NCBI GenBank assembly: GCA_018656655.1
Contig: JABHYW010000040.1
Location: forward strand, 1-40,380
Length of the DNA: 40,380 nt
Source: Candidatus Komeilibacteria bacterium
GTDB lineage: Bacteria; Patescibacteriota; Patescibacteriia; UBA1558; GWA2-36-10
Direction of reading: 5' to 3'
Positions 13,546 through 35,537 of the stretch are shown piece after piece. Each line of letters opens with the position of its first letter. The stretch's first letter is position 1. Both the position numbers and the translations under genes were made by a program. The notes beneath the pieces are model-generated. The model saw nothing but the letters and a program-made list of their open reading frames with translations, had not been told where the DNA came from and did not search any database.

Positions 13546-15057
13546 TTAGATACTTCTCAGCCAATTAAGGATAGTTCGCACTCCAAATCCTGCACCACCA
13601 ACTGGTGTATACGAATTTATGGATTTCTCTATGTAAGCTGGACCAGCAATATCAATATGAGCCCACTCTACTCCATCTTCTATAAAATGATTAAGAAACC
13701 AAGCAGCCATAATAGAGCCACCGCCCTTAGTATTTGATATATTTCTAATGTCAGCGATTTTAGATTTATTCATGTCTTTATATTCCGGAGCTAAAGGTAA
13801 CTGCCACATAGTCTCCCCTGTATCTTTGGCTTGTTTTAAAATAGCTTTAGCTAGCTTATCATTATTAGAAAAGAATCCCGCATATTGAGAACCTAAAGCC
13901 GCAATAACAGCGCCAGTTAAGGTAGCTAAATCTACTATTTTAGTAATCCCCTGTTTTTGAGCATAGGCCAATGAATCAGCTAAGGTAACTCTGCCCTCTG
14001 CATCAGTATGAGCTATTTCAATACTTTTGCCTTGCATATTTCTAACTACATCGCCTGGTTTAACAGCAGAACCAGAAGGCATATTTTCACAAGCGGCAAT
14101 AATACCATGTACTTCTACTTTTGGATTACTAGCTACCAAGGATTGAAAAACACCTAAAACAGTCGCTGCACCACCCATATCTATTTTCATGTCATACATA
14201 CCTTCCCAAGGCTTGATATTAAGACCACCACTATCAAAGGTAAGTCCTTTACCAACTAAAGCAATCTTATCTTTAGCTTTGCCAGTTGGTTTATATACTA
14301 AATGAATAAATTTTGGCCTGGCTTCTGAACCTTTAGCAATAGATAAAAAAGCATTCATCTTTAATTTTTTAATAGCTTCTTCTTCTAATATTTTGACTGT
14401 AATATTCCCGCCTTGCCGCGAGGCAGGTTTATTAGCCTTAGCTATTATCACAGCAGTATCTGCCAAAAATTGTGGTGTCATTATTCCAGCAGGCTCATTA
14501 ACTAAATCACGAGCTAAAATTGTACCTTCGGCTAAAGATTTTCCTAAATCCCAAGCTTTAGTAAACTTTACTTTTTGACTAGCAAGTAAATAAACATAAA
14601 TTTCTTTAATATCTACTTTAATATTTTCTTTGTCTACTTTTTTATATTTATCAAAATCATAATTAGCTAAATATAATCCTTCGGCTAATGACTGAGCTAG
14701 AAGACTAATGTCACTAGTTCCCTTGAGCCAGTGCTTAGCTACTAAACCAATCTTATTAGCTTTGTATTTTTTAAGATAAGCTATAACATGTCCAGCTGTT
14801 TTTCTAAAATCTTCAGCAGCTAATTTCTTAGCTTGTCCAGTACCAATAAAAACAATTGTCTGCTGATCATCGTGAATTACAAATACTTGCCCTTTTTTAC
14901 CTAGAAAATTTTCTTTCTTAACACGAGACAAAACATCTGACTCATCTTCATAATCAAAAGACTTAATTAGATTAGTAATAGCTTTATCATCTTTCAAAAC
15001 AGGCACAAATAATACCTCTTCTTCCTGATTTTCTTCTGCTCTAAATATTAATTCCAT
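13546..15057 (-). CDS. pepA: Leucyl aminopeptidase (M17), with a 7-aa repeat-derived insert
   Basis: VGKGLTFDSGG, MKIDMGG, HTDAEGRV, DLATLTGA, WAHIDIAG. Confidence 0.97.
   Translation of the reverse strand: MELIFRAEENQEEEVLFVPVLKDDKAITNLIKSFDYEDESDVLSRVKKENFLGKKGQVFVIHDDQQTIVFIGTGQAKKLAAEDFRKTAGHVIAYLKKYKANKIGLVAKHWLKGTSDISLLAQSLAEGLYLANYDFDKYKKVDKENIKVDIKEIYVYLLASQKVKFTKAWDLGKSLAEGTILARDLVNEPAGIMTPQFLADTAVIIAKANKPASRQGGNITVKILEEEAIKKLKMNAFLSIAKGSEARPKFIHLVYKPTGKAKDKIALVGKGLTFDSGGLNIKPWEGMYDMKIDMGGAATVLGVFQSLVASNPKVEVHGIIAACENMPSGSAVKPGDVVRNMQGKSIEIAHTDAEGRVTLADSLAYAQKQGITKIVDLATLTGAVIAALGSQYAGFFSNNDKLAKAILKQAKDTGETMWQLPLAPEYKDMNKSKIADIRNISNTKGGGSIMAAWFLNHFIEDGVEWAHIDIAGPAYIEKSINSYTPVGGAGFGVRTILNWLRSI
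14407..14427. repeat. Family C element in frame in pepA (PASRQGG)
   Basis: cccgccttgccgcgaggcagg, a GC-rich patch in an AT-rich gene; matches 5357-5377. Confidence 0.8.
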
Positions 15058-15137
15058 ATAATTATTTATTATAATTTAACACTCTGTAACTTAACATAAG
15101 TTAATATATATAGCAATAATCAACCTATTAACTAAAC

Positions 15138-15162
15138 AAAAAACCGCCCTAACGAGCGGTTT
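15138..15162 (-). terminator. Terminator after rplA
   Basis: aaaccgc...gcggttt stem with a T-run on the minus strand. Confidence 0.65.
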
Positions 15163-15188
15163 AGATCCTGAACTAAATTCAGGATGAC
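15163..15188. repeat. REP-like family E half element (agatcctgaactaaattcaggatgac)
   Basis: 26/26 identical to 34240-34265. Confidence 0.85.
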
Positions 15189-15192
15189 AAAT

Positions 15193-15879
15193 TTAATTTA
15201 TACTTACTTTGATACTAGGTCCCATTGAAGATGAAATGTATAAAGCTTTAATAAAAGTACTTTTTAAACTTTGAGGTTTTGATTTCTTTAAAGACTCAAG
15301 GAAAACTGCAAAATTCTCAAGTAACTTAGCATCATCAAATGATGTTTTACCAATAGTCAAATGAATATTAGCAGTACTATCATTTTTGTAAGATACTTTA
15401 CCTTTTTTAAGCTCACCAACCATTTTAGTTATATCTGGACCAATTGTACCAGCCTTGGGATTAGGCATAAGACCTTTTTGACCAAGTACTTTAGCAATCA
15501 CTGCTAATTTTGGCATCATCTCAGGTACAGTAACCGCAATATCAAAATTTGTTTTTGAAGTTTTTTTAATCTCAGCAATTAATTCTTCACTACCAACTAA
15601 ATCAGCGCCAGCATCTTTAGCTTCTTTAGCTTTATCTTCTGGTACAAAAGCAGCTATATTAATAGTCTTACCAGTACCATGTGGAAGTGCTGCAGAGGCT
15701 CTAACAATTTGATCGCCTTTTTTGGGATCAATACCTAATCTAGCGTGAACTTCTATAGAAGCATCAAATTTTACTACGCTAGTTTCTTTAACTAATTTGA
15801 TTGCTTCTTCAATTTTATAAATCTTATCGCTATCAATCTTAGCTTTAGCTTCTTTTAATCTTTTACTTACTTTTGACAT
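15193..15879 (-). CDS. rplA: 50S ribosomal protein L1
   Basis: KFDASIE, LPHGTG, LGQKGLMPNPKAGT, SSMGPS. Confidence 0.98.
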   Translation of the reverse strand: MSKVSKRLKEAKAKIDSDKIYKIEEAIKLVKETSVVKFDASIEVHARLGIDPKKGDQIVRASAALPHGTGKTINIAAFVPEDKAKEAKDAGADLVGSEELIAEIKKTSKTNFDIAVTVPEMMPKLAVIAKVLGQKGLMPNPKAGTIGPDITKMVGELKKGKVSYKNDSTANIHLTIGKTSFDDAKLLENFAVFLESLKKSKPQSLKSTFIKALYISSSMGPSIKVSIN

Positions 15880-15880
15880 A

Positions 15881-15932
15881 ATTATTTATTATTACGAGGT
15901 TCAAACGCTCAACCGACTAGCCAAGCTCCCTC
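15881..15932 (-). promoter_or_regulatory. Putative L1-binding autoregulatory leader upstream of rplA
   Basis: mRNA GAGG-GAGC...GC-GUUUGAA-CCUC resembles the 23S rRNA L1 site; 50/52 identical to 16398-16449. Confidence 0.65.
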
Positions 15933-34091: not shown

Positions 34092-34110
34092 ATGTGTTTT
34101 CCTTTCTTTA

Positions 34111-34138
34111 CCCGTCCGAAGCTTTATGCGAAGGAGGG
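34111..34138. repeat. Family B element upstream of atpE
   Basis: cccgtccgaagctttatgcgaaggaggg. Confidence 0.75.
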
Positions 34139-34206
34139 CTGACAATTCCAGGTCGATCTTTTTTTATTGTTTTACGTCGCCTAGATTATCTATATTAATT
34201 ATATTT

Positions 34207-34265
34207 GTCATTCTGAACTTGTTTCAGAATCCCATTGTGAGATCCTGAACTAAATTCAGGATGAC
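34207..34265. repeat. REP-like family E full doublet
   Basis: gtcattctgaacttgtttcagaatc...gatcctgaactaaattcaggatgac, with inverted arms. Confidence 0.85.
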
Positions 34266-34288
34266 GAAGTGTGTTTTAAAATGACCTC

Positions 34289-35230
34289 CTAATGTGCGTG
34301 TTCAGTAGAAGCAATAGTATAATATACTAAAGTTAATATTGAAATAATAAGTGCCTGAATAATACCAACAATAACCTCTAAAAACATAAATGGCAATGGC
34401 ACTCCAAAAGCAATCAAGGCAGCAATTGAAGCAATCAATACTTCACCAGCAAAAATATTACCAAAAAGCCTAAATGATAATGAAGCTACTTTAGCAAATT
34501 CTCCAATTATTTCTAGTAAACCTACAAAAAACATAATAGGATTAATAATGATTACTGTCCAATCTTCTTTTATCTTGCCAGGAATCTCTATTAAGGCTTT
34601 TATATTTACAAATTTATTAAAATAATTCCAGCCACCGACAACCATAATACCAAAAATATTAGCAGATACTATAGAAAATAATCCTAAAGCTAAAGTTGTA
34701 TTTAAGTCAGCCGTAGCTCCTCTGAAAATAGCTGTACCGTCATAAGTAATAGAACCTAAGCCAGGAACTAAGCCTAACCAGTTATTAATCAAAACAAATA
34801 AAAAGATTCCAAATATAATTGGAAATACTTTTTTACTTTTAGCCCTATCATTAGTTACCAAGTCCATCATATCTAAAGCACCATTTATAATTATTTCTAA
34901 GAAACTTTGAAAAACTCCTGGGATGCGACTATTTTTAGCCCTAATAGTTAATGACAAAATGATAATTAAAAAAACTGCTACCCAAGAGGTCAACAGTGAA
35001 TTAGTGACATTAAAGTCACCTATATTAAAAACAGTTTCTGCATATAAAGTATGTTCGTGTTCGTCATGAGCCTCGCCTTCATGACTAGTGCCATGGGCGT
35101 CTTCATTTATGATATCTTCAGCCTTTCGGCCTTGCTCAAGACCTTCGGCGTGAAGAGTTTCTGTTTCGTTTGTATGATCAGCGACCGACGCGTGATCTAT
35201 ATCTTGATTATTATTTGTCTCTTGACTCAT
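34289..35230 (-). CDS. atpB: ATP synthase Fo a, with His/acidic N-terminal extension and repeat-derived insert
   Basis: NWLGLVPG, TADLNTTL, SLSFRLFGNIFAGE, IQALI; start placed at MSQE (35230). Confidence 0.95.
   Translation of the reverse strand: MSQETNNNQDIDHASVADHTNETETLHAEGLEQGRKAEDIINEDAHGTSHEGEAHDEHEHTLYAETVFNIGDFNVTNSLLTSWVAVFLIIILSLTIRAKNSRIPGVFQSFLEIIINGALDMMDLVTNDRAKSKKVFPIIFGIFLFVLINNWLGLVPGLGSITYDGTAIFRGATADLNTTLALGLFSIVSANIFGIMVVGGWNYFNKFVNIKALIEIPGKIKEDWTVIIINPIMFFVGLLEIIGEFAKVASLSFRLFGNIFAGEVLIASIAALIAFGVPLPFMFLEVIVGIIQALIISILTLVYYTIASTEHAH
35122..35148 (-). repeat. Family A element in frame in atpB (A-EGLEQGRK-A)
   Basis: cctttcggccttgctcaagaccttcgg; 23/27 identical to the gyrB copy. 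Confidence 0.85.
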
Positions 35231-35537
35231 TTTCGTCTTTTTTCTTCCCTTCGGCTTCACTCAGGGTCTTCGATTTAGTTTCTTCTTTTTCAATTCTTTT
35301 CATGTATTTAACTCCTGTAATACCTATTCCCACAGAAGAAATGATAAAGGCAGCAGCCGTAATACTGAGAAAGTATAATGGTTCTGTTCCTTGCTTTTCG
35401 TCTAACCATCGACCCAAAAATAGAGCTCCAATAACAGGGAAAGCAATCCAGCCAGTAGATTCGGCAAACATCAGCATTCCTTGTCTTAGCCACTCATTAT
35501 TGGCTTTATTTTTATTGTCATTTTTGACAGATGGCAT
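35211..35537 (-). CDS. AtpZ/AtpI-family ATP synthase accessory protein
   Basis: GALFLGRWLDEKQGTEP two-TM motif; first gene of the atp operon, overlapping the atpB start. Confidence 0.88.
   Translation of the reverse strand: MPSVKNDNKNKANNEWLRQGMLMFAESTGWIAFPVIGALFLGRWLDEKQGTEPLYFLSITAAAFIISSVGIGITGVKYMKRIEKEETKSKTLSEAEGKKKDENESRDK
35247..35273 (-). repeat. Family A element in frame in atpZ/I, different phase (SKTLSEAEG)
   Basis: cccttcggcttcactcagggtcttcga. Confidence 0.85.

Follow-up and report, generated by a model that had tools for sequence, protein, structure and literature searches.

The stretch of DNA considered here, called the window throughout, is the entire 40,380-nt contig JABHYW010000040.1 of a Candidatus Komeilibacteria bacterium (contig C64 of an assembly of 779,582 bp in 65 contigs, with a GC content of 32.4 per cent and an estimated completeness of 84 per cent), and six of its genes carry eight short GC-rich inserts that are the subject of this report. 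Gene names across the window are borne out by a Pfam search, which places all six insert-bearing genes on the minus strand: an M17 aminopeptidase (pepA), GyrB, a UvrD-helicase joined to a PD-(D/E)XK nuclease (AddA/RecB-like, here addA; 1009 residues), the epsilon subunit of ATP synthase (atpC), its subunit a (atpB) and an AtpI-like protein (atpI). The other genes include those for ribosomal proteins L1 and L11, NusG and PheT/PheS, and the F-type ATP synthase operon, of which the AtpI-like gene is part, is complete. The genome of the window is labelled G000 and its five congeners G001–G005. The nearest relative, G002 (995,320 bp as fetched), belongs to the same genus and has a GyrB 93 per cent identical to that of G000; the two are sisters with a support of 1.0 in a tree built on GyrB, AddA and epsilon, and their syntenic blocks share 72–92 per cent of nucleotides (82–88 per cent in the long blocks). 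Genome sizes in a sample of 400 other genomes of the phylum run from 0.4 to 2.1 Mb, which suggests membership of the Patescibacteria or candidate phyla radiation (CPR), and DNA of the window is present in 20 seawater/marine metagenome runs from 19 studies.

A first-pass annotation had placed inserts of codon-multiple length in these genes (one each in pepA, gyrB, atpC, atpB and atpI and three in addA), and all eight are recovered at the same positions when GC-rich islands are scanned for, each island being translated in the frame of its gene, and the window is aligned with G002 (Table 1). Two intergenic inserts absent from G002, at 15933 and 34108, are also real. The length of the former, 32 nt, is not a multiple of three, in contrast to the coding copies of its B family, and the latter probably lies in the leader of atpE, since the Pfam match to subunit c begins only at residue 30 of the called open reading frame (ORF). 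Each of the three families first described (A, B and C) does have an intergenic copy in the window as well, at 5357–5377 for A, at 15933 and 34108 for the B-like form and at 33292–33309 for C, and at the last of these no gap against G002 is listed. Three families, nevertheless, proved too few, as the genome holds many more families of repeats.

Table 1. Inserts, intergenic repeat copies and insert-bearing genes in the window
Feature	Position	Strand	Comparison or support
pepA family A unit, 21 nt, GC 0.81, encodes PASRQGG	14407..14427	-	clean gap in G002 and four other congeners
B-like intergenic insert, 32 nt, between L1 and L11 genes	15933..15964	-	absent in G002
gyrB family C coding unit AEGPEQSRR, Lys-rich N-terminal tail	20454..20480	-	net 18-nt gap in G002 (~20457)
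addA B-like insert, 30 nt, nuclease domain, ~aa 891	25259..25288	-	gap in all five congeners
addA family C insert LEDPEQGRRA, ~aa 857	25382..25411	-	three congeners empty
addA composite 45-nt insert, CGTC-tagged B hairpin plus 18-nt GC-rich stretch, ~aa 299-313	27029..27073	-	gap in G002, G003, G005
atpC B insert, 30 nt, encodes DASSIALAKD	28785..28814	-	absent from 24 other orthologues aligned
Intergenic family C core, between atpH and atpF	33292..33309	+	1 mismatch to core pattern
B-like insert, 32 nt, just upstream of or at start of atpE	34108..34139	-	absent in G002
atpB family C insert, 27 nt, (A)EGLEQGRKA, N-terminal region	35116..35142	-	gap in G002
atpI family C insert, 27 nt, other frame, TLSEAEG, C-terminal tail	35251..35277	-	gap in G002, G003, G001
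Intergenic family A copy nested in TGTCAT...GATCTAG-type hairpin element	5357..5377	-	fold -18.7 kcal/mol, z -2.09
M17 aminopeptidase (pepA)	13546-15057	-	Pfam
GyrB	18465-20537	-	Pfam
UvrD-helicase + PD-(D/E)XK nuclease (addA)	24944-27973	-	Pfam
ATP synthase epsilon (atpC)	28520-28990	-	Pfam
ATP synthase subunit a (atpB)	34289-35260	-	Pfam
AtpI-like protein (atpI)	35211-35537	-	Pfam

Empty alleles were sought in codon and protein alignments with the five congeners, and most of the positions are empty in them. The gap at the pepA insert cannot be slid along the alignment (slide 0), and hence there is no target duplication. The gyrB site is empty in all five (G005 has an unrelated three-codon difference beside it), and the motif of its family C unit, which is read on the sense strand in phase 0, was not found in the other 29 GyrB N-termini compared. 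The atpC site is likewise empty in all five, with a different, C-like insert nine residues upstream in G001, and that turn carries an insert in no more than two of 25 epsilon orthologues of the order, those of G000 and G001. All four congeners that have the gene region are empty at the atpB site, and three of four at the atpI site, where G005 has an unrelated insert at the same spot. Around residue 857 of addA, G002 has a family C insert of its own four codons upstream of that of G000, a distance that makes the two independent events, and G005 has an unrelated GC-rich insert there. At the 45-nt site of addA, a homologous but decayed insert is present in G004, and G001 has a hairpin insert of another kind (residue 301); the 18-nt half of the composite has no second copy in the G000 genome. 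The same loops have thus been hit independently in different species at addA residues 301 and 857, the atpC turn and the atpI tail. The inserts of the window are read as gains in the lineage of G000, because the outgroup genomes of the genus show the same gaps, and the original view that copies of dispersed repeats had entered these genes recently is upheld by the empty sites and by the independence of neighbouring addA inserts.

The sequence itself was checked against contigs assembled from independent runs. Two sets not marked as possible sources of the assembly (X17 and X20) cover 23980–27717, 27689–29184 and 34436–35499 with 0 differences and carry the six coding inserts that they cover (the three of addA and those of atpC, atpB and atpI) unchanged. 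No indel was seen at any insert in these independent (Logan) contigs, which drop rare variants, the gyrB insert lying outside the pieces compared; elsewhere there are gaps of 1–2 bases. As far as contigs can show, an assembly artefact is excluded. The contigs of independent assemblies break at ~20614, and a GC-rich intergenic 32-nt stretch of hairpin type occurs in two copies that are perfect reverse complements, at 20611–20642 and 36474–36505.

The peptides added by the inserts were predicted to fall in loops and to be 7–9 residues long, and while tails, linkers and loops are indeed where they are found, their length runs from 6 to 15 residues. The gyrB, atpB and atpI inserts are in terminal regions outside Pfam domains, the 45-nt insert of addA separates two helicase Pfam domains (the first ending at residue 296, the second starting at 317), and that of pepA corresponds to a seven-residue gap in a solved M17 aminopeptidase homologue. 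For epsilon, an AlphaFold model built on a 25-sequence alignment (mean predicted local distance difference test score, pLDDT, 85.8; predicted template modelling score 0.76) places the atpC insert in coil residues 54–68, between strands 48–53 and 69–74, with pLDDT below 50 at residues 59–63.

The pattern extends well beyond the window. Crude ORF calls in G000 and G002 yielded 590 reciprocal-best pairs (median identity 87 per cent) with 679 internal indels, and for inserts of 7–16 residues a GC content of at least 0.5 is found in 38 of 65 specific to G000 vs 10 of 38 specific to G002. When events of at least 6 residues with a GC content of at least 0.48 are counted, there are 44 in G000 vs 15 in G002, and a reading of the event list assigns ~37 of the 44 to repeated families. 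These comprise 12 sense copies of C (27 nt), three C-like antisense copies, eight of a further family D (39 nt, KVNGEAREGGLGH), four of A (21 nt), four of B (30 nt) and six other single or double hairpins of 21–42 nt; the other seven events are acidic or unclassified stretches. The units recur at lengths of 21, 27, 30 and 39 nt. Copy numbers, counted with mismatches allowed, are 15 in G000 vs 2 in G002 for D, 5 vs 0 for A, 8 vs 1 for the B loop and 30 vs 36 for C, and reversed patterns used as a control gave 0–1 hits vs 5–30 real hits. Copies of D differ pairwise by 7.5 per cent, and at four-fold sites G000 and G002 differ by 37.6 per cent (28,716 sites in the first 300 of the 590 pairs), so the burst of D is younger than the split of the two genomes or its copies are constrained. 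Elements are also nested in one another, at 5357–5377 of the window and at locus L041. The genome-wide count by family, coding or intergenic location, phase and strand that the first-pass annotation had called for reveals a pattern wider than it stated.

The families differ in build. Family A, a near-palindrome of exactly 21 nt, is found in runs of A and has slide 0 in four of four events, where slide is the distance over which an alignment gap can be shifted, a measure made noisy by diverged flanks. D and C land in A/G-rich runs of Lys, Glu and Asp codons, with a slide of 0–2 nt in clean cases. It had been noted that no obvious target-site duplication accompanies the inserts, and none is clear here; the cleanest events have slide 0 and A-rich targets. 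The stems of B copies differ in sequence yet stay complementary around a conserved 14-nt interior, several have CGTC or TGTC directly before a stem that starts with AT, and insert length varies (32 nt between genes, 30 and 45 nt within them). Family C in its canonical intergenic form has a CGTC tag followed by an AT-first stem, with a TGTC tag also seen in the TGTCAT...GATCTA group. Among 1067 perfect hairpins in the genome there are 22 YGTC flank readings, and 11 of those 22 stems start with AT. Watson-Crick stems are 5–7 bp long around an interior of 12–14 nt that holds a 2-bp inner helix. A scan of the window against Rfam 15 (E <= 5) gave 10 weak matches below the gathering score, none of them at an insert.

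B-type hairpins also stand directly after the 3' ends of tRNA genes in G000 (C54 2160–2271 and C4 16903–16980), in one case with a run of T behind it, and could be terminators or processing signals there. GC-rich intergenic hairpins of further families stand in the window also at 20550–20581 and 24605–24631, and a perfect-palindrome family has seven copies in the genome.

Orientation and reading frame are strongly biased. Twenty of the 30 C copies in G000 lie in ORFs, 15 of them sense in one phase, three sense in another phase and two antisense, and in genes with a G002 orthologue 14 of 16 are in the one frame. For D, 12 of 15 copies are in ORFs and 11 of these share one sense frame; the remaining copy is antisense and lies in an 83-residue ORF that has no orthologue. 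Five of the six frames are open in both families, and the frame used by C is the most hydrophilic of its open frames. Replication strand and gene strand are confounded, 472 of 573 genes lying on the G-rich strand and three to five copies being informative. The bias would arise from a purine-rich, frame-biased target word (AAA/GAA/GAT codons) together with selection on the peptide.

The core of family C is not particular to this genome but has copies in many bacterial phyla. Searched for as a pattern with three degenerate positions, this 18-nt core turned up in 92 of the phylum's 401 sampled genomes, which belong to 77 of 320 genera, and the reversed control gave 0 in every genome. The exact 18-mer occurs in at least 120 stretches among the matches listed, and these include Acidobacteriota, Bacteroidota, Alphaproteobacteria, Chloroflexota, Verrucomicrobiota, Cyanobacteria, Planctomycetota, Spirochaetales and others. 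There it is found with short complementary flanks, in tandem arrays or nested in other hairpins, and the identical core is kept across phyla with genomic GC from ~0.32 to 0.71. The 27-nt coding form, by comparison, was met on no more than 10 contigs from metagenomes; they are AT-rich, and five of the matches sit in long ORFs and share the frame. Family D is patchy, with 15, 1, 1, 2 and 6 copies in five of 31 related genomes, and its 23-mer was not found in viral contigs. The complete genome G338 holds 52 copies of the C core, mostly clustered in two regions of the chromosome, in an element built as CGTC, AT, core, AT and in 68-nt tandem arrays. The core is outside long ORFs in 10 of 10 loci examined in G338 and in 9 of 10 in G341, and in-frame use is therefore not general for the phylum; antisense ORF matches in G260 may reflect spurious long ORFs and are given no weight. 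One array of G338 (locus L271 1423–1830; C1, ~108.1–108.5 kb) consists of five tandem 68-nt units, each with a CGTC-tagged C element; a CRISPR array was considered for this locus and rejected, the spacers being near identical.

The reading that we favour, at a probability of roughly 0.7, is that the inserts are copies of several very small, GC-rich and partly palindromic families akin to repetitive extragenic palindromic (REP) sequences, which are still multiplying in this lineage. It starts from the observed presence and absence of copies between congeners, their family membership, frame and position, and the lack of target duplication. Repeats still multiplying in a lineage of marine bacteria with genomes of 0.8–1.0 Mb and 32 per cent GC would be copied by a trans-acting enzyme working on single-stranded or hairpin DNA. 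The copies come to lie in A-rich stretches, their targets not being duplicated, and with ~90 per cent of the genome coding many of them are inside genes. The copies to survive would be those of multiple-of-three length, free of stops and placed where they are tolerated (a terminal tail, a domain linker or a surface turn), and such copies would be translated as 6–15 extra hydrophilic residues.

Several observations weigh against it. The mobilising enzyme was correctly reported as missing from the window, and a profile search of the 84 per cent complete genome found none either: there is no match in G000 to Y1_Tnp (PF01797, the domain of RAYT and IS200 transposases), the TnpB zinc-ribbon, rve or DDE_Tnp_1. 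PF01797 is absent from G002 and from the complete G338 with its 52 copies, and the Y1 genes that G001, G260 and G341 do have are not flanked by these repeats. Only for the window sites was gain told from loss by means of outgroups, and not for the genome-wide events, and the 45-nt addA insert common to G000 and the non-sister G004 needs precise losses or lateral exchange. Some junctions show microhomology; at atpB the 7-nt GCYGAAG flanks the insert on both sides, although this word could also belong to the element itself. The folding energies of twelve inserts run from -5 to -19 kcal/mol, with z at or below -2 against shuffles in only three, and coding copies of C have no stem beyond the core (0.60 bp vs 0.55 bp in shuffled partners), so that the name hairpin fits these elements only in part. 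Lastly, the lock of C and D to one frame (15 of 20 and 11 of 12 ORF copies) exceeds what stop codons explain, and the frame used by D is not its most hydrophilic open one. The end of one contig (G000:C23:4-627; locus L233 1-627) carries, near a DNA methylase gene, a reverse transcriptase gene that is truncated at its 5' end (RVT_1, E 3e-20); no group II intron RNA was matched there, nothing ties the gene to the inserts, and it is left out of account.

In the region just upstream of the 45-nt insert (27100–27330, addA codons ~215–290) identity in 150-nt windows is 0.87–0.88 between G000 and G004 vs 0.80–0.81 between G000 and G002, a weak hint that allelic recombination may have carried the insert. 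Its sharing with a non-sister could also reflect ancestry followed by loss, and this speaks for another explanation, in which the inserts are ancestral and were deleted in relatives, or are assembly or adapter artefacts. That explanation is scarcely credible and is contradicted at seven of the eight coding sites. The insert of the window is missing at pepA, gyrB, addA residue 891, atpC, atpB and atpI from all congeners that have the region, which would require repeated exact deletions; only G000 among the 25 atpC orthologues has the insert of the window; independent runs assemble the identical sequence; and the copies belong to multi-copy families for which the reversed-pattern controls give 0–1. 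A role for the host itself is easier to entertain, though still unlikely: replication or repair could copy the elements with no transposase if a stalled or broken end primed by microhomology, between the GAAG-rich ends of the elements and runs of Lys and Glu codons, and copied a short stable hairpin. The failure to find a transposase family in G000 speaks for this, as do the microhomology at several junctions (GCYGAAG at atpB; slides of 1–7), the varying length of B inserts (32 nt intergenic; 30 and 45 nt genic), A- and G-rich targets that resemble the ends of the elements, and a published view of CGTC-tagged REPs, in the account of PMC3733652, as repeats that have no dedicated enzyme. The exact 21-nt units of family A, with slide 0 in four of four events, fit a defined cut-and-join reaction instead, and a repair pathway of this kind is not seen at work in these data.

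It might also be supposed that coding copies are kept and spread for a useful peptide or mRNA structure (for instance as a linear motif, to pause translation or to stabilise RNA), their character as DNA repeats being secondary. The nearly fixed strand and frame of C and D would be accounted for, D is mostly coding (12 of 15 copies), and the 27-nt coding C is rare and confined to AT-rich contigs, half of its ten metagenome matches being long ORFs in the same frame. We regard this as distinctly improbable: the host proteins are unrelated, the copies sit in tails, linkers and turns, close relatives manage without them, the same cores are found between genes, beside tRNA genes and nested in other repeats, and the atpI copy is read in another frame. 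A bolder proposal, which we hold to be doubtful, is that the elements spread with no transposase of their own by means of an enzyme that nearly all bacteria have. The 18-nt core would be the recognition structure of that enzyme, made up of a short stem, two opposed G-A mismatches whose changes go with those of the neighbouring pair, and a tiny loop closed by G-C, and the derived units of 21, 27 and 39 nt would in this lineage be peptide-coding micro-transposons whose length and sense-strand, purine-rich Lys/Glu codon targets make them mostly in-frame additions. Such a system, if it exists, would keep a minimal genome supplied with new surface loops.

Three further observations concern the surroundings. 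A 52-nt stretch occurs twice, 96 per cent identical, at 15881–15932 and 16398–16449, directly upstream of the L1 and L11 genes, which it may serve as a common leader or regulatory site; one of the copies is adjoined by the B-like insert of 32 nt at 15933. Between gyrB and pheT, G002 has ~2 kb of extra DNA (G002:C21, ~39.2–41.4 kb), and the 144-nt stretch 20652–20795 of the window matches both of its sides. At 39847–40380, within a large ORF at the contig end (37980–40358), there are diverged 84-nt tandem repeats, with copies 68–73 per cent identical to a 201-nt reference.

The finding is real, recent and genome-wide, and the best reading is that selection has left REP-like micro-elements in those in-frame positions where they are tolerated. 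A part of the small protein insertions in these ultra-small bacteria is derived from repeats, in proteins that include gyrase, ATP synthase subunits, a RecB-like nuclease and an aminopeptidase, and this matters for annotation, alignment-based phylogeny and structure prediction in the group. Ortholog pairs with and without an insert are natural material on the cost or gain of such loops. The interesting part is copying with no recognisable transposase and the near lock of two families to one reading frame.

There is reason to be modest about novelty, which the first-pass annotation had built on the rarity of such repeats inside genes. Two superfamilies of REPs of 20–40 bp, tagged by GTAG or CGTC, have been described from more than 80 species in eight phyla, and the same survey describes REPs inside genes, many of them genes of replication and repair (uvrA, uvrB, recB), with different REPs at about the same recB site in two Xanthomonas species (Di Nocera, De Gregorio and Rocco 2013, PMC3733652). 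It equates the short Rickettsia palindromic elements (RPEs) RPE-4 and RPE-6 with CGTC REPs and, in its description of the CGTC repeats, ties no transposase to them. Whether tagged REPs still form new copies is a question posed there, and one that comparative and population genomics can test here, since sister species ~87 per cent identical in protein differ by dozens of insert events and no candidate enzyme was found. Full-text literature searches of a limited library returned no paper on such elements in CPR/Patescibacteria, and searches for the letters of the core returned unrelated primer matches only.

Miniature inverted-repeat transposable elements have terminal inverted repeats of 15–30 bp, target duplication and lengths of 70–300 bp, whereas the present units are below 50 nt with slide 0 in the cleanest events. 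The GTAG REPs, with their doublets (REPINs) and REP-associated tyrosine transposases (RAYTs), are similar in being small, GC-rich, multi-copy palindromes with no target duplication. The lack of target duplication fits single-strand HUH transposition. However, G000 has no RAYT, its elements are mostly single units and not inverted doublets, and GTAG occurs in only 7 of 2134 flank readings of the 1067 hairpins, with a few C copies ending in CTAC; REPINs are also mostly extragenic, whereas 20 of 30 C copies and 12 of 15 D copies are in ORFs. Yeast mitochondrial GC clusters are GC-rich repeats in an AT-rich, compact genome. GC-rich hairpin repeats have likewise been described as invading the AT-rich, compact mitochondrial genomes of sponges (PMC2800124). 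Both are analogies only, as the hosts are organelles and not bacteria.

Closer to the present case are RPEs of the RPE-1 type, which likewise insert in frame into housekeeping genes that are unrelated to one another, in a reduced, AT-rich genome, with a peptide conserved within each family and apparent compatibility with the fold of the host protein. They are found in frame in Rickettsia genes but are ~150 bp long in the account of a review (PMC10969869), vs 21–45 nt here, and their sequences are unrelated and from another phylum. The closest published relatives are the CGTC-tagged REPs, among them RPE-4 and RPE-6 of R. conorii and dRS3 of Neisseria, set beside the present elements by their published description and not by consensus sequence. 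As described in PMC3733652, these are short palindromes with a terminal CGTC or TGTC and an A-T-first stem, as in B, the TGTCAT...GATCTA group and the G338 arrays here; they are spread over many phyla with no transposase dedicated to them, some of their copies lie within genes, and the recB site in Xanthomonas parallels the hot spots in addA. Their perfect stems are given as 8–9 bp long with loops of 4–5 nt and a CCA tail, compared with stems of 5–7 bp and interiors of 12–14 nt here, and families A, D and coding C lack the tag. The tag is borne by a subset of B, the 22 YGTC-flanked hairpins and the CGTCAT-plus-core elements of G338.

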